Shown in pieces: positions 1 to 41,200 of a stretch of DNA of 64,000 bases. Source of the DNA: Phoronis australis. Taxonomy: Eukaryota > Animalia > Phoronida. How positions within the stretch are numbered: the first letter of the stretch is position 1; each line of letters begins with the position of its first letter. Location: the NCBI GenBank assembly GCA_002633005.1, contig NMRA01000086.1:186001-250000 (forward strand). Direction: 5' to 3'. A model generated the notes under the pieces. That model made no database searches. It saw only the letters and a list, made by a program, of their open reading frames with translations, and was not told where the DNA came from. The position numbers were made by a program, and so were the translations under genes.

Positions 1-879
1 TACACTCTGGCAGGTGCCCACCACTTGTTACAGTCATCCAAATAACATCTTCAATTGCTAAAGGTTTAACTTTTCTGTATAGTCTGTAATTAAGCTCATT
101 ATGCCCCAAGGTTATTGTGAAGGACAGGACAAATCACATGTCAATGCACATTCAGCATTTATGTACATCAGAAATACCATGTTTCTAGCCATTGCTTTTG
201 CAAACAACTCTGCAAGCTACAGCTCGGGGTAACCTAACCATCACAAAACCAAGCATTGACGTGGGGTTGTGTACAACGCGTTAGGTATGGTTCATAAAAT
301 GTTTGTTTTTGGCAGAAGTGATGTATATAAGATCCCATGCAAACCACAAACATTAAACTGGAATAAATCTCAGTTAGTGGCTTTGAACGTTCCCATTGAA
401 GAACTCGGTGAACTTCATGTGGTCCGTCAGCTTGGAATGCTAGCTGGCCTAATTGAAAAACAAAACATAGAGTCCCTTCCCAAAACATGAATCAAAGCAT
501 ACGATGGCACTACATGGAGCTTTAAAGATATTTCGTGCTATATGTTATGGCACTGTTTAAAACCACAGACTGTAGAAAATAAATTTGACAGTAAAAAGTT
601 CAAAGTGAAAGTATCGTTAAACATTGACCGTTGAGCCCTTTGTTACGTTGATATTTGATGCTCCTTGTGGATCCTTCTGTCTTTCTTCTATTTTCAATGT
701 TACTGAAATATGAGTGATTTAATTTTGAAGGATAGTAATTAAAGAATTTGTTCATTTTAAGTCTTTATCCTCATTTTTCTGTTTGATATTCTAGTCAAAC
801 AAAAGGACTAATTGCTCAGAAATTGGACCTCACTCTTTACGGAGGTAAACATTGTTTTCATGAGCTAATTACTTTACAG

Positions 880-8910
<8,031 letters not shown>

Positions 8911-10856: not shown

Positions 10857-12025
10857 TCAATTGTGCTTCAGAAGCACAAGCGCTTTCTCAAGAGCCTTGA
10901 AGTTATCGTTAACTAGAAACACGTTTTTCAAACTCTTCTCCCATGTTGAAAAATAATGCTCTTGTTTCATGGTGTTAGAATTTACCACTACGTGTGGTTT
11001 GCCCAACAGAACGCACATAATGTGTGCGTGAAGTCGGTCTGTTATGACCACTTGTGCACGTGACAGAAACATCATGCCAGACATTGCACGTAACTGGTGG
11101 TCTTCCATGAAATTGTCTGACCTCTGGTTCATCCAATCATCTTGCCAGTCTGTGATCACATGACTAACTCCACTAGGTATTTTAGGCATTTTCTTTCCCA
11201 TGGATTCCCAGTCGTTTCGTTTCAACCATATTATATCATAAACTGGAATAATGTTCAGTCGCATTGGTCCAATAGCAAATGCGGAATCTGGAATCAGATA
11301 ATTTTCGTTGGTTTTGAAGAAATTGACGGCTAACATGTATGAGTATCGGTCTCTTAGTAAAATGTGAACATCTTCATGAGCTGCAAACATTTTGGCATAC
11401 TTCTTTATCTCTGTGCACGGAGGGGTTGGATGGCAAGAACTTATTGGAAACACTACCACTCGGTTATTAGGAAAAGATTTTAAGGTCTTGTCCACAACAA
11501 ATGCATGTGCTGGGTGACCGATATATCCAGCTCCTTGTATAAACACGACAAGATCGGTAGTTCGAGGAACGTTAGTAAAATCACAGTTGTTGCCTGGATA
11601 GTAACAATAATAAATCAGCTCAACTCCCAGTCTTTTGAGTAGAAGGCGCTGGCCAATCATAATCAGTTGATCACCCTTGTTGGCCCATGTGAACACATTG
11701 ACTAGCACGGCCACTTTGAATTGCTTATGCACAATTTTAGGAAATATTTGATTGTGAATTCGTTCAGCCTCAGCAAGCACTTGTGTGGTTGTTCTAAGTC
11801 TGTGTGACAAAAAGTCTGACATGTTTCTGTGCTTGAAGAGATCAACCTTCAAAAATTTCCTTTCGTCCAACGTGAGGTTTGTGTAATCTAACTTGGTCTG
11901 TTCAGCTCCAGGTGAGTTAGGAATGCTGTCACTTTCAGACCATGTTCCAGTTGTCGTGGCAACTATTACCACCATTAATGCTGTCATCATCGTCAGCCAA
12001 AGTGAAGGACTGTTCAGACTGGAAC
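10857..12025 (-). other. Polysaccharide pyruvyl transferase domain (PS_pyruv_trans; Pvg1/EpsI-like) preceded by one TM helix
   Basis: Ordered family motifs: N-x-G-D (NKGDQLI), the GGGN-equivalent QGAGY, FP, LLRDRYSY, PDSAF, WLKRND, DW, and FLSRAQVVITDRLHAHIMCVLLGKPHVVV...K...Y..TW. Confidence 0.9.
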
Positions 12026-13169
12026 CTAAAAAGATAATTATAATACCTTGAATAAAGGTTTACGTGCTGAATTAATTAGACAAAGCAGGCAATTGTGAAA
12101 GTTATAAAATGTGTCTCGTTTCACTATGCAACAGTTTATGCAATATCATGATTGCTACTGAATCCTTTTCATAGCTTACCTAGTGAGCTGATGCATTTTG
12201 GGAAGGCGTATATCAACAGTCCTACTACCAACAAAATTCCAAATGCCACATTTGTTGCAGACAACATTCTCTGTCCAATGAGAAGAAACGCAGCCGCAAT
12301 AAGAATCCTCTTCAGAACATTTGCAGTGGCGTGGCCGATCACTGAAGTGTAGTTTAGGATGACGCACATTGAGATTATGTTGTAGGCACTGTGAAAGACT
12401 GCTGACACGATGCTCAGTCCGAGGCAAGACACCATGTTGCCAATGAGAGACGGATTAATAATCATTTCTACTATTATCAAGATGCACAAAATGGCTGCTG
12501 CTATAAAACTTATGGTTGATAGTATCTGTAATTGGTGGGCCACTTTGTCGCTTGTTTTCAAGAAATGTTTGATGTTAATGTTTTTAATACCAAGGAGGAT
12601 GTTGGAGATAAATGCCATGCCTAGCCCGGTTGTGCTGGCGACAGACAAGTCAGGATGCCACACAAACCCAACTGCTCCTGCTACTACCAACGGTAATGAG
12701 ATGATTGAGTTTGTTTCCATTTTCTGGCCTGTAAGCATACTTATGAGTACTGCTGAAGATATGGGCTCTGAAGCTTTGATGGTGAATGCAGAGCCTGCAT
12801 TTGCAAACAAAAGGCTAGCATTGGTACATGATGAAGCCACAAGGTGACCTATTGCTACTGCCAGTATGGAATTCGTCATGTCTTGGTTGTCGAACTTTGT
12901 GGTTGAGTCATTTTTCTTGTCAACATAGTTGTTATTATCTTTAGGTTGGCTAATTTTCCAATTTAATTTATCAGAAATTGCTACCAACAGTCTCATAACA
13001 ATTCCTCCAATAAGCATCTGAATACCAGTGACTGTCACGATGCTAAACCAGTCATCTTGATCCTCCTCTCCTTCTGACTGCAAAGCAGCTCGAGCAAAGT
13101 AGTGTGCAAGGAATGAGAAAACTGTCCATGCTGTGAAAGCTATTGTTCCAGCAAGTATGTTGCCAAAAC
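10857..13169 (-). CDS. Fusion protein: TPT/SLC35E-like (putative PEP) transporter + Pvg1-like polysaccharide pyruvyltransferase; start exon not resolved
   Basis: Exon A is 13169-12180, with acceptor TTTATTTCAG and donor G|GTAAGC. Exon B is 12025-10857, with acceptor TCTTTTTAG and stop TGA. The two join in phase 1 (...CISSL-G-SSLNSPSLWLTMMTALMVVIVA...), giving at least 719 aa with no stop. The transporter has TIKASEP and GHATANVLKRI motifs. The transferase has NKGD, LLRD, LIPDSAFAIG, WLKRND and VVITDRLHAHI motifs. Confidence 0.85.
12180..13169 (-). other. Triose-phosphate translocator family (TPT/SLC35E, DMT superfamily) multi-pass domain
   Basis: About 9-10 hydrophobic segments. It has K in 'FTIKASEPI' and KR in 'ANVLKRIL', the positions that bind phosphate in plastid TPT/PPT-family carriers. 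Confidence 0.8.
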
Positions 13170-16100
13170 CTGAAATAAAGAAAGAACACCTGTGTAATTG
13201 ATAATCCAGTTTTTTTTTTTCAAATGGCAGTATATGATGAGATAAGTTATAGCTGTATGTTGACTGAATCCCAGCATTCAATCAGATTTAATTTGTGTAT
13301 GATAATTGGAACACAATCTGATTGTCATGAATAACTTCATGTAGGATTGATATGAGAGCACTCAAGGATTGCATTAATATAAGTAAATGGTTAATACATT
13401 GTGATCTATTCACACCATTAGTAATGGTAATTTACTGAAAGTTTTGGTAACATGCCATTGACCTACTGAGGTTTTCTAATTTGAAATTTGTCATTGATGA
13501 AAATTGGTACTTGACCTTAATGAGCTCTCATGTCTAGCATATATGTTCATAAAATTCTTCATAAAACATGACCCTTAGCCACTTGTCTATACCGGTATTC
13601 CTGGTGAAGATACGTTGTATCCCTGCAGTATGAAAGTCTGCATTTTGGTCTGAAATGTTGGGATCTGCATCATGATCATGGCACAAGTTTTACGATTCTT
13701 TTGACATGTTTTCCAATTCATGGAAAGAACTAGTTCATTTTTATGACTAAAATAACTATATTTGTCCGTGTTAGAGTCCAAAATCCGCAAAAACAAAAAA
13801 CATTAAGTTGAGCAGGTGCGCTTATAATCGAATCTTTTCAGAACTCCTGGTTGCTGTTTGTGAGTTAAATGCTAGCTATAAGTCCATGCATTGTGGGAGC
13901 TTTGTGAAGAGAAGTGTTTTCAATTAATCGAAAATCTCAATTGGCAATTTAAGGGTTGGCGTATAATTGAGCATGGGCCTTTAGAAATTGAGTGTTTATC
14001 TGAATGTGCATGGTAACCCAGACTCGTGTGGTAAGTTAATTTTGTGTTTATCATAAGATGCCTTCACAAAGATTAGATTGCTTGAAACTGCATTTCACCC
14101 TGTTAGGATAAAAAACGAAAAGCGAATTAGGTTGTTTACTTTCATAAGATCTTATTCCTTATCAGGATTGAATTTCATTTCAACTCAAGTCACACAGGCA
14201 TTGCGCACATGCACCTTTTTAACTTGGCAACTTTAGAGTTGGCCAACCGCATTAAACTGTGAAGCTTTTTCGTGATTCACGTTCATTTGGTGGTTTGATG
14301 TCCATTTTAGTAATATATTTCTATCACTAAAGAAAAAATATGTGAATAGTTTTGGAGTGCAAAAGGCTTAATTCTATTTTTGTTTTTAACCATGAAGCAG
14401 CTTTTAAGTCAATGCAATTGTTTGAAACAGTGAGACTTAAGGTGATATGTCAGTAACAATCAACTTGCTTAATTCCATCATTCTATAACAGCCTTTTAAG
14501 TGCATGATGTCTTTTACCACCATGCCATTTTTCACTTTGCAATTTTTGTTTATGTATTGAAATGTTCCAGAAAATAAGGTTTATATTCTCTTTGCTACCC
14601 ATCTTGTCCTATTCTAGAGATATACAAGCCTAGAAGTGCACTATTTAAATACACACATAGCGCAGTGTAAGTAGGTTAAGTTAGTAATTAAGTATTACTA
14701 AGGAAAACCTTTTGCATATTAGGTGAACGTGCTCATAAACTGTATAATATCATCACAACCACTGAAAGTACAGATTCTGAAGTATTAACAATAAAGTTAC
14801 AGAAGAAATTATTTACAGATGACATAATGAAGTAACAGTACAGGATCCACTCTAGAGTGTTGCACACTGAGAGTATTTCTGACACACACATAAGCTCAGA
14901 CATTTCATGAAAGCAATCAGTGTAGTGACTTCCTGTGACTTCAGTAGTCGGGGTATTGTGTTCCAGAGAGAAATACCATGAGGATTAGAAATGGTACCAT
15001 AAGCAAATGTAAATGTGTACTCACGTTTTGTTTCCATGTTGGAGAGTGGTGAAAATTCCAAATATTGAAACAAATACTGTTCCTGGGCTCCTCAAAGAAA
15101 AGGGAAATTGGAATACAGTTTGTTCTTATTGGCAAGCATGCATCAGGCTGGATTTATATTATATCATGAAGCAGCAGAGCCCCACCTCAACTCTTTTGCT
15201 ACTGGAAGAATTTATCACAGCAGGTAAAACAGTTTTGCATTTTGTGCCAAAACATGGGTCAAGTTAAAATGATATTTCTATCCTTTGTTGTTGTAACATT
15301 GCTATTTCAAGAGTAGTTATTTTGTAAAACCAGATTTTTGAGTTATGCAAACTGAAAACTGAAAGCCAGGCTTTATTTAACCAGCCACCCCTCAAGTTTG
15401 AATAAGATTATTGAACTCTGCCTATTCAAAGAGTTTCTTTGCTTAGTAAGAATTGTCCACAACAATGGGTTAAGGGTATTACATAATGTAGTGAACTTAG
15501 CATGAGTTAGTGGGACATAGTAAAATCAAATGGGTGGGTATTTAGTGACACTGACTCAGACAGTGCTGGGTCTGTCTGACTCTGCCTATTGTTATTACTT
15601 CAGGTGCTGTGGGACCCAAACTCTTACTAGGACAAAAGTAAATCACCACAAGGTTGCGATCCATGGGCAGCTATCAGGTATATATATATATAAATATCAG
15701 AGCTTGGTAAAGTCTTGAAACATAATTACAAAAAAGTGTTGTTTGGGACGTATAGTGCTGTTCTGTGTAAAGCAATCACAGAGGTTGATTTGACAAGAAA
15801 AGATATGGTGGACGATAGATTGGTTTTTAGGAACTTTTTCTTTGCTGTGAGCACGCAAGTGAGGTTTGTAACTGAGATCAAACATTATTTGGAAACGTTC
15901 TTAGCATTTGCATGTGACAATCAGTAACAAGCATTCAAAAATAGAAAAGTGGCAATTTTATCAATATTTTTACCAAAATTTGCCGACTCTTTACTAAGCG
16001 TGTTTGTTATAAGCTTATACAACTTAGAGTACTTCAAATTTTCCAACAAAGCACTTGTTTTCACAGTAAAGGTTAAAATTTACCACTAAATATAAGGAAT

Positions 16101-16239
16101 GTCTGTTTTCATCAAATTTGTCTTTACAGTCAGTTATTTTTATGTACAGTTTCAATTAGTTTTTCTGCATGCTTATTAATTATTATTGATTGTGAGATGT
16201 CAACTAGGTGATGTTCTTGAGTGATGCCTGTATTAGTAA

Positions 16240-17230
16240 AAGTGAGAATCTCACTGGATTCTGCAATGAAGTTCCGATGAGATTCTCATTAAAACCACCA
16301 CTTGAGTGAGAAATGCAAGTGAGAATCAAGTGAGAATTGAGGAGTATACTTTACTCAATGTGTGGTGGGACTGAAAAAGAGACAGAATTCAGTGAGAATT
16401 TTGGACTTAGAAAAATTGCGAGTGAGAATCCAGTGAGCATTTCTGAGTGAGAATGTGAGAATTAAGTGAGAATTTGTTAAAGTGGGAATTTAGGATAAAC
16501 GAACACACTCATGGGCTGCCTGAGTGTATATTTCAGTTAGACTAATCAGATTTTATGAATTCAAAATAAAATGGTGCCAGAAATTATCAGTTGTAATGAG
16601 GGAGTGAAATAACTTGAAGGTTGTCAATGTTTTTCTCATAAATATTGAGAAATTACCAAACAGTGTTTACTTCAACCAGAGGGGATGGTGAACTGAGGTT
16701 GGGAGTTAATACATTCCATTCATCTAGTAGAGTACAATAATGAATCACTTTTACTCTTCGTAGAGTACATGTTTAATCACTGACCTTAACTGTTAGGCTG
16801 ATGTCTTCATTCTGTGTTTGTTGTTGTATTTTATTGATTCCCATTAGCGTATTTAGAGGCTGAAATTGTTCAGACTTTAAGTCTACTGTATTTGACAGGT
16901 TGTCATTAAATTCCCTTTTTCAGTAACACAATTTTGTTCAATATTCTCTTCAGTCAAATTTCATGGTAAACATGCAAAAACGAGCAGCACTTGACTTTGG
17001 TCACTGATAGCTTTGAAGTGTTATCTAATTTCAATGACTAAAATAAATACAGAAAAATTCTAAGTTTACAATTCTCACCTTGTGAAATATAGCCATGCTG
17101 GAAGACAAATCCTCACTGAGTGTAGGAATTCTCACTGTGCATTCTCACTGGAATATCATTGTATTCTCAGTCAGTGAGATTTTTTCTCACTAATTAGAAT
17201 GGCATCTCAGTGGAATCCCACTGGATTCCA
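16240..17230. repeat. Two oppositely oriented arrays of a short GTGAGAAT motif (fold-back-like repeat)
   Basis: Many AGTGAGAAT copies at about 16240-16490 and many ATTCTCAC(T) copies at about 17070-17230. Confidence 0.55.
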
Positions 17231-18408
17231 ATTATAATCCTTTTAAGGAAATTATCCTGCAAATTTTTTTCGAAAAGGAAACGTTAAGGTAAACAAGTGG
17301 TCGTGTGGGTCTTGAGGAGGGTGACATATGTTGAGAGTGGACCTGATGAAGACTTGAACCTATTAAGGCTTGAAAGCTAGTGTTGTTTAATGTATACTGG
17401 ATTAGTGTTTTACTTGTTCTGCATTGTCTGTTTTTAATTCGATAAATGCATATATTTTCTGAAAGTGGAAAACCTGTACAATGTAATTTTTTTAATTTAT
17501 ACCAATTTCCTTTTAATCGGGTCGCATGGCCATGTCTTTGTTGTAAAATTTAGCGAACAACAAAGGTACGCCCGCATCAAGGTAATGGTATCAACGTGTC
17601 AACGTGACAAAATTTCATTAGTGATAAAGTTGTCAAGATGAAATCGCAAAAATCATGCTGTAAGAGTTTTCTAAATTATAATCTCATTTTCATTTTATGC
17701 GACTTTAGGTTTCTTTTCATAAAATCATTAGTTTTTTAAGGAAGATTTTAAAATTAATTCCTTACAGTATTTTGGACAACATTGCATACGTATAGTAGAT
17801 GAAAGTGTACAACCACACATTGCTGAGATATGATGCTTCAAAGTTAGTCACATTTGGACATTTTTGTAGGTCCTACATATGGTATAACTTTGAAGACTTA
17901 AGTGGTCGTGGCTCATAAGATAATTATTTTATTGCACCCTGTTTTTCTGTGCTCTAAGTGTTAATACAAAATTTGTAGTAACATGCATCATGCCATCATG
18001 TCTCTCAGTTTTGTCGTTTGGAACTTGATTTCTGTACAACTTTGAATTGGAAATTGCAGTAATTCTTTACAAAAAAAATAATTGCTGACATTGTCATTTT
18101 TATATTTTGTAAAGGCTTGTTACCTTGTTGCAAATACTGTAAACTTTACCATTATTGTTTTATGACCTCTTAGTAGACAGGGAGTTTGTAGGTATTGGAC
18201 AATGTTGTTGTATTGTTACTGTCATGTGTATGCCTGCAGTACACAGAAATCATTACAGGTCCATATTTAGTGATTGAGGATCACATAATAAAGCCCTTAA
18301 CCATGCATGGTTTAGTTCTCTGGGAAATAAATCAGCCCTTAAACTATCAACACACTGTTTAATTTACTGGCATAGTTCTTTAGTGTTTGCTTTTTGTTTT
18401 CAGATAGA

Positions 18409-21252
18409 ATGATCCCTCGTATCATCGTGAAGTGTCGGTTCATCTTGTTGTCTGTGTTTCTTGGTGTTTTTGGCCTCATACTCATAGCTCTTCTCCATCA
18501 TGGTAAATCTGTCAGTGTTCTCTCACAAGGTCCTGCTTTAAGGACTACATTATATGCCAATAATGCTCTTCATCAAAAGGCTGGAGACAAATATGACGGA
18601 GGCATGGTCAATAGACAACTGTTAGCCGGAACCATGTTCTTCGACTCCAATGATGTTGTACGGTTTTCCAAACCAGTGACAACCTCTGTTGTTCATTCGT
18701 TTTCGACAGACACTATCAAGGCTGTTCGGCGGATTTTTCAAGATTTCGCCGGGGATAACATGTTTCGTGCTACTGTGCCAGCATTGATTAGAAGAAATGG
18801 TGTAATCTTATTGGTGCAAAGAATATGGTTGTCCCAGTATGAGCATGCTGCGTATTACAACAAAAATCTAAACTGGACAAACTACTGGCAGGAAAACTTC
18901 TTTTACACACAGGTAAATAATAATTATAAACATTTATTTGAAAATGAAAATATATGCAGAAGTTCTCAAGAAAGCTCCAATAAAACTACCTTCTGTCAAC
19001 TTTTTAATTAGTCCTGTGGATGTTTATAAATCTGCATGGCCTCAACTTGTTCTTTGCTCAGATGGGAAGTGATTTCTGGGTTGACAAAGAAATGACAGTC
19101 TGTTATTGCGTGAGGTCATCCTCTGCATTAAATGTCCTGCTGTGACAATCCCAACTTCTTCAGGCTGTTTTTGAGTAGTAATGAACTGCCAATTCACCCT
19201 AAACCTACAGAACTCATTTCTAAACTAGGAACCAACATATTGCTTCCTAGATCTAAGTAAGCGACATGTTGAGACCAGTTTTACAATGATCAGTGGTCAG
19301 AATCAAAGGTTTATTGTTTATGAAAGGCGAGTTAATTTGCCCTTTTAAAAGGATACCAAACCCAGTTTTGGCTTACTAGCAGATATGAAAAATGACTTCC
19401 CAGTTCAGTTCTCTGAAACAAAATAGTGTTCAGTAAACCCTCAACAACTCAAAAAGTTTTGGAGCAAAATTTGGAAACTCCTTAAAAAGACTGCGAAACG
19501 GGCAAGCAGGACCCACGCTTTGAGCGAGTTACACAACTGCAGGGAAAGATCACACCCCGATTTATGTCACAGAGGATAGTGGGATTCCAGTGATGCATCA
19601 ACAGGTGACAGCATATTTGTTGATATATTTGCATATATAGGCACATACAGGGATTTTCACTATGTGTTCCAGGTGCAGTGTTAAGTATGTAAAATTTTCC
19701 TTCCCATCATCAAAGCAGCCTCCACTGCATCACTAGGTACCGCTTGCTCCTTGAAGATGTCCAAAGAATTGACTGCTTTCCTTGAGACCATGCTCGGTGT
19801 ATAAAATGACATATTGTATAGCAAGCCAACTTGTAGAGGCTGGTCTTAGATCTTTCAAAGAACTAAAATCCCTAATTCGACAAAGCAATAATTTTAGAGT
19901 GGTGTAAGTATAAGTTAGTGTTAATGATGGAAGCCAAGCTTGAAGCTAGGCTTGAAGTGTTGGCTAGCTCTCACGGTCCTTTTAATCCATCAACAAAAAA
20001 TAAAACCGACTTCATGTGTCATTGTTTTGCAATTGTGATTCATTTCAGACTTTCGACGAGAATTATCAACCATTATCCAAGGGCGAATTAATGGGAATTC
20101 CATCTCCAACCAACCTCATATATGAGTATCGGAGTGATGGACCTATGGATCCCCGACTATTCTCTGTAAAAGATGACACTTTTGTGATCTTCCACACATG
20201 GGCCAGCTACACTAAGGGTATTTGAAACATTGCATGTCATTGATTTACGTTTGGTTTTGTTAAAACTCTTGATGGGCAGGTACAATTTTAGGTTGCAAAA
20301 CAAAACAATACATATTAAACTTTTTAAAGTAGCTGAACTGGAAACCAAACAAAGGTACCCCAGTGTTGTTTTTTTCTGTTAAAATCCTCTATGGTTGACA
20401 GTCACGGCCTTTTTAAAGCACTGCATATCAAAATTAGACCCAATGAATAGAAAGCATTAACATTATTGTGACTGAATTTGTCATTATAATTGCCTTTTAA
20501 CTTTATTATATTCAGGTAATCCAAAGAAAACTGCTTCGAGACTGCACTTATGGAATTTCCAAGAGAATGCCAAAATACGACTAGACACTACTGACTTGAA
20601 ACTGATGACTACAGAAATCAACTGGTGCCCTGTTGTGAGAAATGACACACTGTACCTGCTCTACACTTTTGATCCTCTCAGAGTTCTTCAGTGTAACCAT
20701 GGAAACGGCAACTGTAAACTGGTGCACTCTACTGAGAATGCGGATCAGCACAGCTTTGAACACGTTGTGGACCATTTACGTGGTGGAACACCATTTGTAG
20801 AGTACACATATCCATACTTCATCAGTTTTGCCCATTCTGTATTGGTTACTACGAACAGCAAGTCTGTATACACAATGCATTTGGTTGTGATCTCTGTAGA
20901 ACCGGTGTTTAGAATAGTGTATGTTTCTGCACCAGTAGACGTTAGCAAAGAACTGTTGTATTCCGTCCCGATTGTACGGAATTTTACTCTACATTCACCG
21001 TTTGTTTACCCCGTGGGTATAATCATGTGGAACAAAGACCTTGTTGATATTGGTGCGCATCTCAATGATTTTGATGGACACGTGATACGATTTAGAGGCA
21101 TTCAAGGAATAATGGATAAAGTTATTATAATTGATCAATTGCATGAAACGAAGCATGGTGCACGTGCAAGACAAATTCAGGCGGAGGTTGCCAAAAGTGT
21201 TGATATTCACACAGAACACAAGTTGACATTTCAAGGGGTGAATGTTGGATAA
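18409..21252 (+). CDS. Type II membrane protein with GT91 (beta-1,2-mannosyltransferase/Bmt)/GH130-like five-bladed beta-propeller motifs, 469 aa
   Basis: Exons 18409-18912, 20049-20217 and 20516-21252 are joined by GT-AG introns in frame (1410 nt). There is a short basic N-terminus plus a TM helix (FILLSVFLGVFGLILIALL). Motifs GPMDPRLF, EINWCP, LRGGTP and FISFAH resemble the GPEDPR, EKNW-P and RGGT motifs of Bmt-type proteins. AATAAA at 21294. The gene model is firm; the family call is less certain. Confidence 0.72.
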
Positions 21253-22170: not shown

Positions 22171-25100
22171 TTAGTATGGCTGAAAGTTGCTAGTCAAATA
22201 CAGGAGAGCAGTGCTAGCTTCAGTTGTCTGTATATATGCCTGCTGAATAGTCTCTGCGTCGGCGGTGTGGAACGTTTCCTCCAGTTTGTCCCCGCTGGCC
22301 TGGTGCATGATGGGAGCGTGTATCTCTACAACTTGAGGCACTGTATCTTGAGGTGTCGGTAACTCCACCTGTTTGAAAAATATCAGAATATTACTCACAG
22401 ATCTAAAATTCATTTCCTACACACACATTCCATGAAAATCCAACACTTGATTTCATTCTCTCTCTAATAATATGAGCAGGGACTGTTTCATGAAAAGTGT
22501 TTGATAGAAATTATTCTCCCACTTTGCAGCAACTGAATCCATCGGTCTAGAAAGGATTTATAGAAATTATTTCAGTAACCAGATTTTGCACCAAATGAAA
22601 TTTAATATTTTCCAAATTAGGAGTGTTGCATGAAGCACCAAATTTGTGACTTACTTAAGTATCAAGTCACCTTTCATGAGCCAGACCCCTTGCCTTCAAA
22701 ATGTCCGACTACAAGCAACTTGACGCTGTGCCATAATGATTACAACAACATTTTTAGCTCGCAAAAATTGTACTGCAATCGAGCTCTCTGTTGTGGAGGA
22801 CATTGCTACAACTTTACTCAACAAAAATTCTTCACATTTGAGGTGTCCATATGTCCTTACTCATATCATTGAATAAAGAAATAACTTATTTATTTTCATG
22901 TATATTTACAACAAGTGGAAATGGAACAAATAGCTGTGATGACAAATTGTCATCAACAGTTTATTTGGTTTTAAAAATATACTTTCCATGTAACTTACCA
23001 TGACATTGCCTACAACAACTTTTGAATATTGCTGCTCTGACCCCTTCTCCACTATGCTCCGCATGCCTGGCGTGTCGTGCGTTCGTTGGTGCCGCTCCAG
23101 TGAATACTTGGTGTTGAACCGCTTGTCGCACAGTGGGCAGGGGTGTGAGCGCGGGTTCGAGTGAATGTTCTGCATGTGTTTACGCTGTACTGCCTTGGTC
23201 TTGAAGTTGGCACCACAGATCTCGCAGAGGAAGGCGCGCACGTTGGTGTGCATCACCACATGTTCCTTTAGATGAGCCTGCAATATCAAGTAGTCGGCAA
23301 CCATGTGAACAGGGCATAAATCCTAGAAATACCTGGTGCTCTGTGAAGTGAATCCTTCCATTGTATAAAATGTGATGGGAAACCATGTGAACGGGACAAG
23401 GAATACTTTTTAGACAAATTATGTCCCATCTGACTCGTATACCATACATACATATATGTCCAAGTTGATCAAGTAGTGGAGAATTAAGACAATGAGACTA
23501 GGCTGAAAAAACATGGTTGTTACTTATAGTATCTTTTTCACATTTTTCCCACTGTCTGAAAGAACAGTTGCTTCATGAGAATGTTCACCTTGAAAATAAG
23601 CATATTCAGAAGGTCAGGACTCTGGCATGACAACAGTCCAAATAAAATACCAATGAGATTCAGATTCTACAGATCTAAATCTTTCCATTTTAAAATGCAA
23701 AAGTCTTGTTTGTTTTAAGCTATGATTGGCAGTTAAATTTAAATACATGACTGGACTATAAATTCAGCAAAACATAGCTATTGTGTGTCACAGATTTATT
23801 CAAACATATTCCAATCTTTTCATTTAATAGTAATGTGTCAAACAAAATAATTTGCCAGGAAGTGAACAGACAGAAATCAAAACTATTCTCACTATCATAT
23901 CCGATTTCCTACCTGTGATTTGAATAACTTATGACAAGTTGGACAAGGGAACCTGTATTTCCTATCGTCTCGGTTGATGTGAGTTAACTTATGCTGGTTC
24001 AGGGCATCAGGTCGTTTGAACGCCTTGCCACAGAGGTCACAAAGGAAAGGTCGTCGATTAGTGTGCACATTTTTGAGGTGGCGGATAAAGTGTTCTTTGC
24101 CTGAAAATAAAATGCAACAGAACATGCTACGATACAGTTCACCAGGGGGTAACCCTCTAAATATTAAACCTTTCCTGCACATTTTCATAGATTTAGAAGA
24201 TGGTGTTTTTGTGACCAAAAGTCAAATCAAAATATTTGCCCAGGTATATTGGCATTGCTATATATACGACAGAGAGCATAAACAAATGTCGCCACCGCTT
24301 AAGCGAAATCCCCGGAATGCTCTCAATAATTGTGGCAGGCACTGTTTTAATAAAGGGCTGAAATTTCACTGTCAGTGGTTCAAGTTTTAAGGTCTAGTTC
24401 CCTCTGAAACTTGGCAATTTTCAGGGTTCAACTAAACATAGTATGTACCCTGGGCATATTTTCAGATCCAATGGGCATACATTCAACACAGACCTCTCAA
24501 ATTTTGGTACTGTAATAGTTGTTCATGGCTAGCGTGAACCATGTGTTCATCCATGCATCTATGATTCTATCACAAATCTCACTTATCTACGCTGAATTTG
24601 CAGAAAATTGATGAATCAATAACAAGTGGATTCTGAACTTTTGATGACTACGCCGAGTCTGTATAACAAGTCAGTGACATTACAGTGCCCTCAATTTTGG
24701 GGCCGAAATTGCCCACGACATATATTTAAAAATTATGTGAAGTTTCTTTCACTGGGCCAAAACATTTCTCTTCAATGATTAAAAATTCCCTTCAAAGTTA
24801 GAATCACTTATGCAAAATGTTAGTATTGCAGATGAGGGGAGGCAATCGCGGAAGGTGAAATTGAGAATTTGAGGTGATGAGGGGGAAGGGATTTTTCCCT
24901 TCACCAAGGAAGTCCCCCCCCTCAGAATGTGCAGGCAACTTTCCTCACAGGTGAACGAGGGCCCTGCACTTGAGGACTGACAACAATCCATGATCAGACT
25001 TACGAGTAGACACATAAGAACACTGTTTACACTGAAACGTATTGTCAGTGTAGAAGTTCAGAAGATCACGGGCACTTTCATCCAATTCACCACCTTGGTC

Positions 25101-28100
25101 GCCGATATGGTTGTGCACGTCAAAAGGTATCAGGCCACTGTGAGCCTGGAACAGAGAAAAGCATACACTAGCCAGCTGGAAAAATCAAGTGAATGCGTAA
25201 ATGAAAAAAAATCCAAAACAAAATATTAACACAGAGTCAAAACTACTTGTACATGCTACAAAAAGTATTACAACAACAGCTCCTTCACTCAGACAGATTT
25301 TGATTAATACCAACTAGCTATTGTCAGTTCCTTATGAACCCAATTGTTGGGAATAAACTTGTTAAACCTGGATTTAACTTGTTTAACAACTTTTTGATTG
25401 TTTCTATAAAATGCAAAGCAACTTGCAGCAACAGTGTCCCAATTTATTTCCTTCAGATTTCAAAACATGAGTTAGGGAAATAGTATTCCAACAGCATCTC
25501 AATTTATTTCCTTCAGATTTCAAACCATGAGTTAGGGAAATAGTATTACAACAGCATCTCAATTTATTTCCTTCAGATTTCAAAACATGAGTTAGGGAAA
25601 TAGTATTACAACAGCATCTCAATTTATTTCCTTCAGATTTCAAAACACGAGTTAGGGAAACAGTATTCCAACTACTGGAAACATAAACTTAAGTTAGTTC
25701 AGCTTGTATTTTGTGACGTCACGTCTTCAACAACATATGCATTAAGTCCAACTCACTAATATGACAGATGGTGCACACACTAAAACAGGGAAGTCACCTC
25801 TGTTTGATAAATCATTCAGGAACTCGCATGCTCATACCCTATATAACTCATGACGAAATACATTGGTTTGAATAATAAAAACACCACATCTTGATATCTG
25901 ACCCTAAAATCACCGGTCAAATGAAAACAGAAACTTACTTGAAGATGTCTCTCATAGTGGGATGAAAATTTTGTTGTATATGTACACTGTGTGCAAGCAT
26001 ATTCTTTTTCTGGAACACACAATAACAAAAACAAAATAAATATACATGTCCCCACCGCCTTACAATATTTAACTTCTGGACCCGAGATCTAATTCCTGTA
26101 CCCAAAACTCAACTCGAAAAATGACCAATCGCATGTCATGCTTTGAGTAAACTTACAACTTAGTACTCCAATCATAGGGCATAAGTGGTTGATTTTAGTG
26201 TATGACACAAATTAAAGCTCCGAGATTAAACCCTGGGTCCAGAAAACCCATGTTGTATTTGCTGGCTATATTTAAGAAATAATAGTAACTGTCAAACCCT
26301 GTCCACTGCAAAAATGGATATTATCAAACTGATTTCTGACAAAAATGGCTGAAAAAAATCAATTGGAATGATGTCACAATGCTGTTGTCTGACAATTGCC
26401 TTAAGGTTTTTCTAATTAAGAAAGACAGCATCCTTTATTCTGAACAATTGCTATATGAAATTGAATGATTGATTCACCACAGCTAGTTTCATTGCGGCAG
26501 ACTTTAATTCTGAGTTTAAAATTTAAAATTGATTCGGTTACTGTTGCATGACCATTTTAAAAACGAACGGAAGAATGAAATAATTTTGCAAACAATTTAT
26601 CTTTTGTTACCGCAGTTTTGTTATTTTGTGACTGTGTTAACTATTATCAAACATCAATGACCAAGGAAAAACTTACTAGGCTGAGATTCATGCTTCAGTT
26701 TGATGTGTTTGTTGAGATGAAAATGGTTGAAGGTTGTGAATGAACAGTGGCTGCAGTGCATCAGCTGAAAACACAAGTCAATGTTGAACTTGCATTGACT
26801 GAGTTATTTTATCCCAGTAAACCAAAATACATCTCAGCTGAAAGGCTCACTAAGAATAACCGCACCACAGTACATACTTCACACATTTGATGATCAAAAG
26901 AATTGAGCAGTATCCATCTTTGTATTTTTGTCCAGATTACTGTAAGTGGCAAGCATAAACAGTGATTCATCATGTCCTTACAACCACACTAATGATAATC
27001 AATCAAGAGGTCAAGCAGTGGCAGATTTGGGAGGGAGACAGGAGACATGGCCAAAAATAGTTTGGAATGCATGAAACAGTACCACCAGCAAAATTGCAGA
27101 TTCACCGCCAACAGGCTCACCAACATCAGAAAGTTGTAAATTAAACTGACATTGAACACCACAAAGTATACACATTGCACAGCATTTATTTAATCAGGCT
27201 TTCGTTACGCCACTAAGAAATGCAACCAGATTGGGCACAAAAATTACCTCGAAGTTCATTAGGTGACACTAGAGACACAAAAGTCTGACTGTGGAAAAGG
27301 ACACGTCCTTCAGATCACATGGCACATTTCTTCAAGAAATGTCCCCATTATGGTGAACAGTGTTCTGCTCAGATGATAAGAAAGTATTCATTCTTTGTTA
27401 GAAATAGCGAGTGAATACTGAACTGGCCAAAGGAGGGGCAGTGAAAACAAATTATGGACTTGGCATTTTACCTCACTTTCATCTCTATGTTTCAGTTCGT
27501 GTCGCCTGACATGAACTTTCCTCAATGCTGTGAAGTCACACATGGAACACTTAAATAAGTTTGACGCAGCATATTTCCTATGCACTGAGAGGTGCTTTGC
27601 AAAATGACTTTGCCGCCTCGTCTTGAAGGAACACCTTTTGCAGAAGAACTTGAAAGGAGTCAGCTTATCATTATCTTTCCTGTAAACGTATGTGTGTTCC
27701 TCCAATGTATGATCGCTAGTCTTTTCTGAAATATGGAAACAGTTGTATTTGTAGGATCTATAGGGTAAACAAAATACACCATCATTTGCATAATTACACA
27801 CTATCAGACAATCTCTGAGATCTCATACTCATGTGGTACACGTCAAAAATAATTGGAACAATCCACCTTCTGTTACCATGGTTTGAGCAATGACCTGTCC
27901 TCCCCCAGTACTCTGACCATCAATAGCCACTTTCCGATATAGTGTTGGCATTCTGAAATTTACATGGTCACTAAATGACAATAGGGTATTTTGGTTGCAA
28001 ATAAACAGCGCCACCTAGTTTTCATGCAACTTGTCAGAGATTCTAACAGTATAATTCCATATTGTTTTTAAATTTTTTGCTATCACTATCCCATCAAATC

Positions 28101-35280: not shown

Positions 35281-38200
35281 ATGACAGCTGATGGTGGTCT
35301 TTCCAATATCAAGTCACTTGTGATTAGGGCTTGGCGCGAACGATGGACAGACGTGCAGTTTTCAATACATCTGAAGCAGATTGTGCCTGTTGAAAGCCAG
35401 ATCACAGCTCTTCCAGGTATGAAATTCATTTGTCTGCCTGTTGGTTAAATTTTACATCAGCTTGGCTGTTAAACTGACATAAAGGTAAAGTCTGTCAACA
35501 TTCATAGAATTTCTTTTCAAAAATTGAACATTCACATGTTGTTAAGTTACATCTAGATTTTTCATTGCTAATCATAACAATACTTAAGGACAAGTGCATT
35601 ATTTATGTGCCGATTCAGGCCTTTTGATTTTCGTAAATTTGATTTCCCTTTAGTGTGTAGATCAATTTGCATGAAAGTTCAAAATAGACTGTTAAAAAGT
35701 AATTTGGTGAAGTGGGATAGGACTTTCTGAAGGTTGGTATTGTCGCGAAAATTGACATTATCTTTTGATTGCCATGCTTGAGCTACAGGACAAGGCAAAA
35801 GTGATCAGACAAAATAACCTTTTGTCGTGGCTGGTAATAACTATTTTGGGGGCAGAATTGTAATTACAGACTGACTGAGCCACCTTTCCAACTTTTCTGT
35901 TAATTCCCCTTCATTCTGGGTCACAAGAGAAAACCACTCTACGGTGAATTTTGCTTTTGTCCAACCGTAATTATGAGGGAATTCTGGGTCATTTGGTCTG
36001 AATACTTTTGGCGTATACTGTACTGGGACTTGGCACTTTTGGACTGTTTGTGGTTTTGGATACAGTAAAGCAAATAATCGTACATTCTCCTCCTTTGAGT
36101 TCTCAGTTCAGGCTGATGCTGCAGCAGTCAAGCGGTTTTCATGTGCAATGTGTGTAATTATCTTTAAATGTCTCTCCTATTTATGCAAGGTTGTTTTTTG
36201 TAGACATTTTGATACAACAAGCTATGTCTGGTTCAGCCCCCAACAGTTTGATTTTGTCCTACCTGAATCATCTGTCTGCCACTCAGGTAAGAAAGCATAA
36301 AAACATAAAAGCAATAATACTGGCGATGATGACATTTATGACTTCAGGTAGTTCGGTAAACTTTTGTTTTTTGTCTAGCATACCATTGCATGTAAAGAAC
36401 ATTTTGATTATGCTTGCTGTAATAGAAGAGTACTTTGTATCTGGTGGAACATCTTATGAATAAGAAGTCAACTACCATGGCAGATGTTATGATGTGAGTT
36501 CCTCGATGTGTTGAAAACAACATTGTTCTGCTTTTGAATATCATTGTTAAATACCAAATAAATATTTTTAAGTAATCATGAAACAAACTTCATTTATTCT
36601 GTTTAATTTGCTAAAAAAAACAAAATCGAATTACGACGTTTTCTGTTATAAAATCAGTCTCGTGATCATTCTTAGCCTGATAGAATTCCATTTAACTCTA
36701 CTAACTCAAGCATGCATGCACCTTTTTCAAAGTTGCAATTTTTGGGTTGACCAACCCAAGTAACCTCTGAAGTATTTTCCAGAGTCGTAGATGCTTTCTA
36801 TATTCTTGACAATAGCAGAGACAGAATTCTGTCGTGGTAAGGAATATAATGAGACTGAAAGTAATAAATTATTGACTTAATTCAATTTTCATCTTTAATT
36901 TGTCGCCTCCCAAACATGGGGAAATGCAGATTTAAATAAAACTACCAGTGTTCAAATTTGAGCACTTTTTGCACCAGTGACGCAGATGGGAGCAAAGCTT
37001 ATGGTACATGTGTGTCCCTGGGGTGCAAGAAATTGTTGAGAATCTTCACAGTTTACTTTCATTGGTGGTTGCAAACTTTCATTTTTAAGTCCTTTGTGCA
37101 TGATATTGTCCGTTGAATTTGAACTCTGTAAAACAGAGTATTGAGAAATAATTTGTGCCGCATACAGAATTTCATCACGATCTGTTTGTTGTTTTAGGTG
37201 CTTTCCTCTTCCTGTGTGTTGAAGTCTGTGCTCCAATTTGAAGACTTTACCCGGCCGCACTGTATAATCAGCCTTGTTGACTTTGCAAAAGCTTTGATAA
37301 AGCGCATCAGGCAAGATTTGTTAAGATTTGTACACAGCTAAACTTAAGTCAGTTTTGTGTTTACTAAAATGTTTAAAGCCATTGTTAACCATGCTGTGGT
37401 GTTAAAACATCAACATTCTTTGCATGTGTATTTGCTCTTCCTATGCACCATAATGGTGTTCTTATCCTGTTTTTATTGCTACATTTCACTCTGTTTAGCC
37501 ATCTTAACAACGGAAATTGGTGAAGATCTTTTATTTTCATAAAATTAGCCTCATTATATCTTCTTTCCCCGGATAGGATTCCCTTTCCATTTCCAATAAA
37601 GCGCTTCAGAGTTCATTGGGGTTGGCGTACCCTATAATTGCAAATTCCAAAATGGTGCACATGCACATTGCCTGTATGTAACTTGAGTTTTCGAATACCA
37701 ACTTAAGTCGCAAGCAATGCCTTGTGTTCCATGTTTGAATCAGAAAGAATGTTACAAGGCAGATTCTATAAGAGTATAAGACCTAATTTGATTTTTGTCT
37801 TTTACTTTCTTATGCAGGACAAAATGCGGCTTTAACTGAAATTGGTTACAATAAATTGTATTGAATTCCTCTAGTGATTGATATTAACCAGCTGTTTCAA
37901 GTTATTCAATTGAGCCAATCTGAACCAACAAGACCCTCTTTGTCTGCTGATTTTGATGCTTACAATCATTTCTAATCTCATCAAAGAACAAGATGAGACT
38001 GATTTCATTTCAGTAAATTGCCTAAATTATAAGCTGATGTTTGTCAGAAGGCCCAGGTTTGTTGTACATCCACTTCTCCACTCTTTCCAACCCCTGTACA
38101 ACCATGACTGCTGCCTGTCTCATGCCTACATCCTTCAACACATGGTACTTAACTCGTTAAACCTTCCAGTCCCATGTACGACCCTGGCAGTTATACTGTA

Positions 38201-41200
38201 CTGTTTCATATTTGTGTTTTCCTTCCGATCCTGTGTATTTCTCTGACAACTGCCTAATGCCTGTACCCTACTTCACATAGTAGTTCATTGCGCTCATATT
38301 CATATTTGCCTTCTAGGCCTTTGTATGGCCCTTACAACTGTCCGTCTCATACCTGTGCTCTACTACACATGGCAGTTAACTGTACTCATGTTTCTATTTG
38401 CCTTCTAGGCCCATGTATGGCCCCGACAGCTGCCTGTCTCATGCCTGTACCCTACTACACACAGTGTTGTGGCTGCTGCAGACATTACTTAAGAGTCTCC
38501 AGAAGCAGGCCGAGTCCAAGTCTTCGGCGACACCATTTTTGTCTGTTATAGAAAGCGTGCAAGCATGTTTTGAGGTTACCATCGTGACTGGTGTCAATAA
38601 GTCACTGATGTTAGTTGCGAAAAAAGAAAATACTGGTATGTTGTGCAACTGGGCTTGTCAATATATCAAAGATATTTCTGATAGAAGTTAATGAAAAAAT
38701 AAGGAAAACTGAGGCAGTGGAGCAAGTAAAGAAAGTTGTGAACTGTGACATCTTCTTAGTCCAGCTCTTAATTCATGTTGATTTGTGGTACCTTGTGACT
38801 GCTGGATAATTAATTGGAGGTGAATGTAGATTTTTAATGTTCAACATGCTCAAAGCATTTCTGACTTATTTGAAAAAGTTGTGTCAAAGCCTGTTTTCTT
38901 TTTTTGTCCTATGGAGTGAAAGTTAAATTTGTTTTTGTTTTTATATTTCAGTATTTAGAAGTAGATGATTATTTTTAATCTTTTTTAAATACAAGCTTTT
39001 ATTTTGACAGTTTACTATAGAAAACTATGAAAATCAGCAGTTTTTACTGATATCTGATCAAGTGATGATTCAAATATTTCTTAATATGCTAAATGTTTCA
39101 GCCACAATGACTGCAACGTTCTCTTTACTTCAACTTTAGTTTTGTTTTTTCTCAGAACTTTTCAGTAAAGTGGAGCAGGCAGAAACTGATGTGCGAGCAG
39201 TCTGTGGACAGATACAAAATACAGCCATTAGAGACAAAGTCGAGGCTTGTTTGAAGTTATCAGCCATGTAAGTTCGAAATTTGTTGGAACAGTTATGAAT
39301 AAAGTTAAAGTCTCTTACATTGGCAAGATTGTATAAAAGTCAAATTGGAATAGTACAACTGTTAAGTCAGTTGAATCGCTGAACGCCATCTGGTGGGAAC
39401 ATAATCATGTAAAATTACAAACCTCATAATAATGTCAATCTCTTAATTTCCCTTTAGATGTTTATAGTGGTTTTTACAAATGACACTGCATGCCAATGCG
39501 TCTTTGATTTAAGAGCCAATGAAAAATATAATAGCTTTGTCGTCATAGTTTTAGCTCACAGTTACACTTGTAATAGTTAACTCTGTCTCCCTCCTTATTA
39601 CAGGTTACACCAGGAGAGCCAATCAGATCTGAGTATCCTCAACCAGCCACACATTCCCTCTGTGGCTGGACTCATCATAGGGTTTGAGGCTGTTATGAAC
39701 CCTCTGGGTGAAATCAACCCATTTGTGGACCAGCTGCTCTTGCTGGAAAAACTACAAGTAACCTTTGGCGCATTGTGTTCATCGAATCAATTTTGATATG
39801 TTTTCTTTGACCATCGAATCCTTGTAATAAGAGTGGTCAAAAATTAAATAATTATGAATAATTATTCTTAATTAGTTTCAGCTTTGTGTTCTTTTCTTAA
39901 TTCACTCTTTGTTTATTCTTGGGGCAAATTATGAAATATTTTATAATTTATTGTAATATGAAATAATTGTTAATTTATCATCATTGGAATTGTGAATAAT
40001 AATATTTAAACTGCTTTGAAGATTTGAAACTCCCTGTTTTTACTAAAGACAAAATCTTGACTTGAATTTATGGAGTTTATGAATTTCAAATTGCTGTGAA
40101 ATGTTTCTTCCAGCACATCTCGCGTGTTGACCTGTACTGTGACATTGTACGAGTCTGTTGTATTGGTCTGATAGACTGTGCTGACGACCCAGATGAACTA
40201 AAATGGGCGGCGTTCACATTTCTCAAGGTTTGCATACTTTCTCTGATTTGACCATTTACTTCATCAGCCAACCATAGCATGTATTATCTTAGTGCTATCT
40301 GTCCAGAGTTAATTCTCTCTCAACTTCCACAACATGTTTGGCTGTTCTTGGTGAGCCAACTTGTGGTAGAACAGGTCTTGCCACCTGGTGACTGCCTGAC
40401 TTACATGTGAAAAGTCATTATTTCTTCATGTAGTGAGACAACTATTGGTGCTTGTCATCATAGAAGTACAAATCCTGGGAAAGTAAAATCACCATTCCGT
40501 TACCTGACTTACTAGTTCCTAACACTAGTAGGCTCAGTCACCAAGTCCAGCCTTTCACTGGTTATTTGCCATTCTGGCTACAATGCTCCTGGTAATCTGG
40601 ACAGGTCACCCCAGTGTGTTTGACGTCATAAGGAGTGATAGAGGAATCTTCCACTGTTTACAACATTTCGGCGTCTGTATTGTGGTCAGTAATTATTCGA
40701 AATTCTTCTAAATATTTTTCCCAGTACACGTAAACAAAAAGGGTTGATTAACAGAAGTTTCTCAATAGAATAGCAAGATTTTTGCTCAAGTTTTCTTGCT
40801 CAACTTGTCATACGTCCGCGTTTAACAAACTTGGCTAAACGCATTAAATAGAATTTTCCTGTCAGATACTTTATACATGGAAAACCATATGTGGCAGGCC
40901 AAATTGTTGAGTTTCACATTAGCAAGCACAGTACTTGGTTGAATGACCTTGCGTTAGCGATGTTTGAAAGTTTAGTGTAGCACTTTTTTCAGAATCTGAA
41001 TAGTTTATATGTTTAAGTGTGTTGTAAAAGTGAATGCTGTGGATGTCTCTGTCCTAGCTCCCTGCTGTGTTGAAGCACATTTTCCACCTTTCACCTGGTC
41101 ATAATAATGGTGATGAACTGGATCAGGGAATTAACAAGCTCTTGAACTACGCCTCATTGTTGGATCTTACAGAAATGAAGTCTAAGTAAGTGGTGTTGCT

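Follow-up and report, generated by a model that had tools for sequence, protein, structure and literature searches.

In the window, a stretch of 64,000 nucleotides (nt) of the Phoronis australis genome (contig NMRA01000086.1), a minus-strand gene joins a membrane carrier of the TPT type to a pyruvyltransferase of the type of Schizosaccharomyces pombe Pvg1p. Splicing yields a single message with three exons and one open frame. The fused protein is likely to reside in the Golgi, to import phosphoenolpyruvate (PEP) and, on the lumenal side, to attach pyruvate to a sugar as a ketal. Its parts are the following, all positions being those of the window.

15025 to 15037, minus strand: coding part of exon 1 (13 nt), with the ATG at 15037 opening a frame of 723 amino acids (aa); 14 joint reads
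13170 to 15024, minus strand: intron 1 (1855 nt, GT..AG, phase 1), whose removal joins 15025 to 13169
12180 to 13169, minus strand: exon 2 (990 nt), for a carrier with a predicted ten-helix TPT/DMT fold (from PF03151, PDB 5y78 and the helices of the AlphaFold model of the Watersipora homologue)
12208 to 13038, minus strand: PF03151 (TPT) match, within exon 2
Codons starting at 12777, 12384, 12312 and 12309, minus strand: carrier phosphate-site residues K136, Y267, K291 and R292, equivalent to GsTPT2 K204, Y339, K362 and R363
12026 to 12179, minus strand: intron 2 (154 nt, GT..AG, phase 1), between the carrier and helix 11; 5 junction reads
10857 to 12025, minus strand: coding part of exon 3 (1169 nt), for helix 11, a stem and the pyruvyltransferase
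11946 to 12002, minus strand: predicted helix 11 (residues 343 to 361, hydropathy 1.74), which is helix 327 to 346 in the Watersipora homologue model
10977 to 11681, minus strand: PF04230 pyruvyltransferase match, within exon 3
Codons starting at 11672, 11507, 11354 and 11036, minus strand: transferase key residues D453, H508, R559 and R665, equivalent to Pvg1 D106, H168, R217 and R337

An earlier note on this DNA had proposed that two minus-strand open reading frames (ORFs), 13281 to 12169 and 12059 to 10857, are joined in frame by intron 2 (12179 to 12026), which begins with GTAAGC and ends with TCTTTTTAG. Since 25 GT/AG pairs near this intron likewise preserve the frame, the frame alone is weak evidence, and the reads decide. 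Four RNA runs with the same species label were used (X1 to X4; about 18 to 19% of X1 to X3 was sampled), and two of the four support the intron: reads over the 12180/12025 junction, which the note had suggested looking for, were found four times in X1, with four starts, and once in X2, the 154-nt joint having CT..AC ends on the plus strand. Depth is 0 in both runs in the 100-nt bin 12030 to 12129, which lies entirely in intron 2; the nearest bins that are exonic throughout, or very nearly so, have 7.6 and 12.9 in X1 and 3.1 and 2.4 in X2. The proposed intron is therefore borne out. The gene as a whole is covered by 111 reads in X1 and 102 in X2, and first mates are almost all on the plus strand, where stranded libraries of the usual kind would put a message from the minus strand. 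Run X4, which consists of contigs, gave just two matches of 22 to 24 nt on the fusion gene.

The protein had been put at 719 aa or more. One fused frame was indeed found, but the first exon had been missed: the 1855-nt joint is crossed by 14 reads (6 in X1 and 8 in X2), loose read ends match the sequence of exon 1, and translation from the ATG at 15037 gives 723 residues, with a start that lines up with those of two homologues. The 5' untranslated region runs upstream of this ATG, where other ATGs are out of frame or open short frames (four of 2 to 15 codons ahead of the start codon, at 15037 to 15240 on the minus strand), and the 3' untranslated region extends to at least 10300. Retention of intron 2 would give a stop at 12171 to 12169. 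Each joint is seen separately, none of the reads extending over the full message.

Contamination was considered and rejected. The gene has spliceosomal introns, its reads are 95 to 100% alike and come from runs with the same species label, its GC content (0.38 to 0.40) is that of the flanks, and its neighbours are intron-rich ERCC3, C2H2 and Med24 genes.

When exon 3 was used to look for longer proteins, two of 2529 candidates matched, both of them fused: a 757-aa protein without a name, and XP_067938280 of the bryozoan Watersipora subatra. The latter is the closest named relative of the window protein (43% identity in the carrier, 61% in the transferase). A HMMER search with it returned 150 representatives, and both halves were present in 36 of the 152 proteins collected; a later count, which includes the window protein and near-copies, gave 53 two-domain proteins among 227, with the carrier first in all 53. 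Pfam confirmed the transferase in 29 of 30 aligned fusions and TPT in 28 of 30. Names were looked up for 22 proteins; no named protein of a sponge or of Aplysia was among the matches. The fusion was found in gastropods (Haliotis asinina and H. rufescens with several copies, Elysia, Physella, Lottia and Gigantopelta), in Physarum, Ceratiomyxa, Spizellomyces, Quaeritorhiza and Vitrella, in Cryptosporidium canis, where TPT is just below the cut-off, and in EukProt Tk10180, which we take from its label to be a copepod. For Gigantopelta the Pfam listing holds the transferase only, and our own profile finds both domains. A 60-member cluster of the ESM Atlas, all eukaryotic and mostly from molluscs, has PF04230 in 97% and PF03151 in 93%. 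Judged from these comparisons, the same domain order is widespread in eukaryotes and not peculiar to Phoronis australis, which is a correction to the earlier note; the order recurs in a bryozoan, gastropods, slime moulds, chytrids, Vitrella and Cryptosporidium canis.

Other arrangements occur among the same proteins. Single-anchor transferases are present among the unnamed matches. Three C. canis proteins (P0111, P0172 and P0173) and one of Vitrella (P0066), which are labelled 'AMSJ/WSAK like polysaccharide polymerase' or unnamed, have a TPT-like carrier with the K/Y/K/R site before the pyruvyltransferase. The pyruvyltransferase stands behind an unrecognised seven-helix membrane domain in P0113 and P0138, ahead of a GT8 domain in P0091, and after a methyltransferase and a carrier in P0176, a Spizellomyces model that is possibly a merged gene call.

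The carrier half, encoded by exon 2, matches Pfam TPT (E 5.3e-22; 79 bits against a cut-off of 30), and its only PDB match is the TPT carrier 5y78 (E 2e-6). It begins at residue 4, with no transit peptide. Modelling of the Watersipora homologue predicts a ten-helix DMT fold, and Foldseek puts 5y78 first among carriers. The residues K204, Y339, K362 and R363 of GsTPT2 bind phosphate, as in all plastid translocators (Lee et al., 10.1101/169169). Two motifs singled out at the outset, the K of KASEP and the KR of NVLKR, do correspond to phosphate-binding positions, namely K136, K291 and R292. Conservation was counted in a set of 39 fusions, made up of the window protein, 36 two-half proteins, P0153 and P0159, with residues mapped by hand from printed alignments (numbering shifted by 89 in GsTPT2 and by 53 in Pvg1p) and gapped rows excluded from the totals: K204 is kept in 31/33, Y339 in 35/38, K362 in 38/39 and R363 in 36/39. 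Since the phosphate site is common to all plastid translocators, the K and KR residues do not single out PEP. PEP is proposed as the cargo because the partner enzyme uses it, because this site is conserved, and because Golgi pyruvylation in S. pombe needs a PEP carrier besides Pvg1p (PMC4872226, PMC6090015).

The transferase half also matches its expected family, Pfam PS_pyruv_trans, with 83.3 bits (cut-off 25.3; E 3.5e-23). Both profile searches suggested earlier came out above cut-off, and both domain assignments are upheld. Its PDB matches are Pvg1p (5ax7, E 1.5e-27) and WbbZ, and identity to Pvg1 is about 27%. For the fold, the Watersipora homologue was used, which shares 61% identity in the transferase; a single-sequence model of the window's exon 3 reached a predicted local distance difference test score (pLDDT) of 34.8 and was not used. 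With an alignment of 30 sequences, AlphaFold gave the homologue a mean pLDDT of 84.8. The model shows the ten helices of the carrier and one more helix, then a stem of poor model quality and, last, an alpha/beta domain; how the domains lie relative to one another is not fixed, as the predicted template modelling score (pTM) is 0.53. Foldseek listed, in order, Pvg1p, 5y78, WbbZ, SLC35B1 and CMP-sialic acid carriers, and the top match to 5ax7 (E 1.9e-14, template modelling (TM) score 0.78 by target) predicts a two-domain GT-B-like fold.

Three residues of Pvg1 are kept in nearly all of the 39 fusions: D106 in 38/39, R217 in 36/38 and R337 in 35/37. The D106 mutant of Pvg1 is almost inactive, whereas R217 and R337 were modelled on PEP and their mutants could not be expressed; H168 hinders N-acetyllactosamine acceptors (Higuchi et al., PMC4872226). 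At the H168 site, His is found in 7/38 fusions, including the window protein (H508). As key residues are kept across the fusions, both halves look functional; the specificity of the carrier is not readable from the plant rules.

An extra transmembrane helix after the carrier, and a transferase in the lumen, had also been proposed, and both are predicted here. The linker between helix 10 and the transferase contains one 19-mer with a hydropathy of at least 1.67 in 37/39 fusions, and no second one above 1.5. Lys and Arg alternate along the 25 of the 39 fusions that cover all eleven helices: there are 11.9, 12.9, 9.2, 17.4, 6.3 and 19.7 K+R per 100 residues at the N-terminus and in loops 2-3, 4-5, 6-7, 8-9 and 10-11, against 1.3, 3.8, 4.8, 5.2 and 7.4 in loops 3-4, 5-6, 7-8, 9-10 and after helix 11. 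This pattern fits a cytosolic N-terminus and a cytosolic loop 10-11. In Golgi carriers of the DMT fold, the N- and C-termini both face the cytoplasm (PMC6508934), and a ten-helix carrier with both ends cytosolic, followed by an eleventh helix, would place the transferase in the lumen. The two expected N-glycosylation sequons, NLT and NMS, are present in the stem after helix 11 (N384 and N402).

The following mechanism is considered likely. The ten carrier helices, with both ends cytosolic, would be followed by helix 11, which would lead the chain into the lumen, where the transferase would sit on a stem of about 75 residues like a type II Golgi enzyme. K136, Y267, K291 and R292 would bind the phosphate of PEP, which would be swapped 1:1 for lumenal phosphate. 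By analogy with Pvg1, R559 and R665 would then hold PEP while D453 activates a sugar hydroxyl, so that the ketal forms and phosphate is freed. The freed phosphate would be the counter-substrate of the carrier, and the cycle would be closed inside one protein. As acceptor, a beta-galactose at the end of a glycolipid or glycoprotein chain is the most likely, with either a 4,6 or a 3,4 linkage.

A number of observations weigh against this proposal. Run X3 has no read on the fusion gene in the part sampled, and intron 2 is supported by five junction reads. Helix 11 of the window protein lies at the weak end of the hydropathy range and has no Lys or Arg in the preceding 12 residues, and loop 1-2, with 10.5 K+R per 100 residues, is an exception to the positive-inside pattern. 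Among the fusions, P0004 has lost key residues in the carrier only, its transferase being intact, and P0094 has lost them in both halves, which means that the architecture can outlast the chemistry. Pyruvylated glycans from bryozoans are not reported in the available text of the reviews PMC6801904 and PMC6994554. Other points concern the carrier. The carboxylate-binding His185 of plastid translocators, and the Asn that replaces Phe262 in PEP carriers and makes room for PEP (10.1101/169169), have no counterpart: the first site is Ser117 in the window protein, with His in 0/30 fusions covering it, and the second (Phe262/263) is Leu197, at position 263, with Asn in 0/36. The TIGR00817 score, 47.6 bits, is far under the cut-off of 317.9, and in the ESM Atlas feature search the carrier was not separable from nucleotide-sugar carriers, all ten listed clusters scoring 0.97. 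As the Asn-263 signature is absent, PEP specificity rests on the fusion itself.

In one alternative, the transferase is active while the carrier moves another cargo (a nucleotide sugar for the residue beneath the cap, or phosphate only) or serves as an anchor, PEP being supplied by a different carrier. The feature search, in which the carrier groups with TPT clusters and nucleotide-sugar transporters alike, favours this scenario, as do the missing His185 and PPT-type Asn and the Pfam TPT scores of the animal copies (50.7 to 79 bits), far below those of chytrid and slime-mould copies (159 to 188 bits). However, nearly every copy retains the phosphate tetrad, for which an anchor would have no need; TPT comes first among carriers in the fold search, and PEP is the sole known donor of the partner enzyme (PMC6801904). 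We consider this scenario unlikely.

Alternatively, PEP may be imported as in the proposed mechanism while the PF04230 domain performs another chemistry or acts elsewhere in the secretory path, for example with an enol- or lactyl-ether product, a non-galactose acceptor, or a lipid acceptor of the endoplasmic reticulum. The low identity to Pvg1 and the high variability of the acceptor-side H168 position leave room for this, and sequence-based calls in the PF04230 family need care (PMC6801904, section 5.3). On the other hand, the three proposed catalytic residues of Pvg1 and H168 are all kept in the window protein, Pvg1 is the nearest solved structure, and the gastropods, a group in which the fusion occurs, include Aplysia, with its known pyruvyl-galactose glycolipids. 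Such a departure from the Pvg1 reaction appears improbable.

Two further scenarios we tend to exclude. The first, that two separate genes, minor read-through or an annotation artefact simulate a fusion, could draw on the small number of junction reads, none of them full-length, and on several carrier-only ORFs in databases; it is very hard to reconcile with the zero depth over intron 2, with the fused proteins recorded across eukaryotes, and with the carrier-only ORFs themselves, five of six of which have a Gly at the window splice site's distance from the YxxP motif and end within 2 to 38 residues of it, so that they look like unspliced exons. The second, an inverted chain or a helix 11 that does not cross the membrane, with a cytosolic transferase and a carrier exporting a product, is just as improbable: the pLDDT of helix 11 in the Watersipora model is low (50 to 60) and its hydropathy modest in the window copy, but the helix is kept in 37/39 fusions, loop 10-11 is the most basic of all, and a cytosolic enzyme would presumably need no PEP carrier.

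The question arises whether the fusion has a single origin. Distances in the carrier and transferase trees of 29 fusions are correlated (rho 0.75, 0/2000 shuffles), two degenerate and three near-duplicate rows having been left out. Shared descent alone yields such a correlation, which indicates that the halves travel together and does not give the reason. A transferase tree of 41 rows places 19 of the 21 fused domains on one side of a branch with a Shimodaira-Hasegawa-like approximate likelihood ratio (SH-aLRT) support of 87; the chytrid pair is placed elsewhere, apart from the other fusions. The grouping of all 21 fused domains was weakly rejected by the approximately unbiased (AU) test (p-AU 0.038), on a quick LG+G4 tree with 20 mostly unnamed outgroup rows. 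These results are compatible either with a single ancient fusion, followed by splits and swaps, or with at least two separate fusions. No fused form was found in bacteria or viruses, with 0 carrier-profile matches in 81 viral and metagenome loci among the matches listed (flanks of at most 4 kb). Given the spread among eukaryotes, recent horizontal transfer is not needed.

Some of these metagenome loci (L002 to L007, L013, L014 and L049) are host-like DNA in metagenome contigs, with pieces 70 to 94% identical to the Watersipora transferase. There, the transferase is divided into up to six exon-like pieces, against a single exon in the window, a difference that points to introns having been lost or gained among close relatives.

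How does the fused protein compare with known systems? It shares family and fold of the transferase with S. pombe Pvg1p (5ax7), of which D106, H168, R217 and R337 are kept. Pet1p and Pet2p are TPT-family proteins, and with Pvg1p they follow the same predicted logic, a carrier feeding PEP to a lumenal enzyme; by this analogy, the reaction would be the one already known from yeast. The Pvg1 type makes a 4,6-ketal on beta-galactose, with PEP as donor. Pvg1p, however, is a separate type II protein with a single anchor, whereas in the window protein carrier and enzyme form a single chain of eleven predicted helices, and its anchor comes after a whole carrier. The plastid translocators TPT, PPT, GPT and XPT (GsTPT2, 5y78) have in common with the window carrier the ten-helix DMT fold and the K/Y/K/R phosphate site; unlike them, it has no transit peptide, scores far under the TIGR00817 cut-off, has neither His185 nor the PPT Asn, and is fused to a transferase. 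The bacterial ketal-pyruvyltransferases of PF04230 (EpsI-like, CsaB, WcfO and WbbZ, 6x1l) belong to the same domain family, with about 20 to 33% identity, but they are cytoplasmic and without a carrier. Analogues in design are found among O-acetyltransferases: the CASD1/Cas1 enzymes for sialate and glucuronoxylomannan, plant RWA plus TBL, and bacterial OatA. There, a multi-pass domain handling a cytosolic donor is combined with an outward-facing transferase, the two being fused or split according to the lineage. They differ in that the families are unrelated, the donor is acetyl-CoA, and the membrane part is not an antiporter of the TPT/SLC35 type.

Pyruvylated glycans of animals have been known since the 1990s, from sea-hare nerve glycolipids and sponge adhesion glycans (PMC6801904, PMC6994554). 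The view from which this analysis started, that animal pyruvylation is chiefly a matter of sponges, holds in part: sponge glycans (4,6-ketal) are listed, but so are the glycolipids of the gastropod Aplysia (3,4-ketal) (PMC6801904, PMC6994554). The latter fit the gastropod matches of the fusion. Beyond these two cases, the available text of the two reviews lists no animal pyruvylation. No animal pyruvylation enzyme is named in the available text of these reviews, one of which calls it unclear whether eukaryotic pyruvylation is rare or was simply missed, and PMC8724618 adds nothing on such an enzyme in the part available. The sequence survey of PMC6801904 kept proteins of 250 to 600 aa only, a filter by which nearly all full-length fusions (about 600 to 1000 aa) would be dropped. 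Two pyruvyl transferase genes are expressed in Cryptosporidium females, and no carrier is mentioned in the available part of that article (PMC6877471). Term searches of the available text of PMC9713705 and PMC10774378 found no fusion, and a literature search, which mostly does not reach subscription journals, found no paper describing a carrier-pyruvyltransferase architecture. As automatic database annotation already shows the two domains together, the architecture is undescribed as far as searched, but not unseen. Each part is known by itself; what appears new is their combination in a single chain, together with its distribution over animals and further eukaryotic groups.

Elsewhere in the window, a 258-aa stop-to-stop ORF at 20476 to 21252 on the plus strand, the strand opposite to that of the fusion gene, is found some 5 kb upstream of the latter. 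It has a marginal Pfam match to BMT, the yeast beta-mannosyltransferase family (PF12141; 28.7 bits against a cut-off of 28.3), and no PDB or NCBIfam match; it would be unusual for an animal if real, and an ORF at 18376 to 19011 (plus strand) may be an upstream exon. The region 16200 to 20000 contains repeat-like stretches, among them an inverted pair near 16261 and 17207, with many partly matching reads on both strands. The other genes are an ERCC3/XPB exon (864 to 1220, plus strand), C2H2 zinc-finger exons (22906 to 27822, minus strand) and a multi-exon Med24 gene (36158 to 50915, plus strand).

The fusion family is a specific candidate for the enzyme behind the pyruvylated sugars of animals. 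More tentatively, and as a proposal somewhat less likely than not when taken as a whole, single chains made of a PEP/phosphate antiporter and a ketal-pyruvyltransferase could form an old and widespread eukaryotic family, of which Pvg1 with Pet1/2 would be the split form, and which could provide the missing animal enzyme, for instance for the nerve glycolipids of Aplysia; its expansion in molluscs and bryozoans could mean that invertebrate glycans commonly carry pyruvate as a negative cap which, being acid-labile, is easily destroyed and has been overlooked, and the tether could couple donor import to phosphate export. The family leads one to expect that bryozoans, molluscs, slime moulds and chytrids have pyruvate ketals, and it may bear on Cryptosporidium, through the female-expressed pyruvyl transferases and the fused protein of C. 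canis. The tie between a Golgi carrier and the transferase that it feeds would offer a natural system for the study of substrate coupling, and possibly a one-gene tool by which a sialidase-resistant negative charge would be added to glycans.

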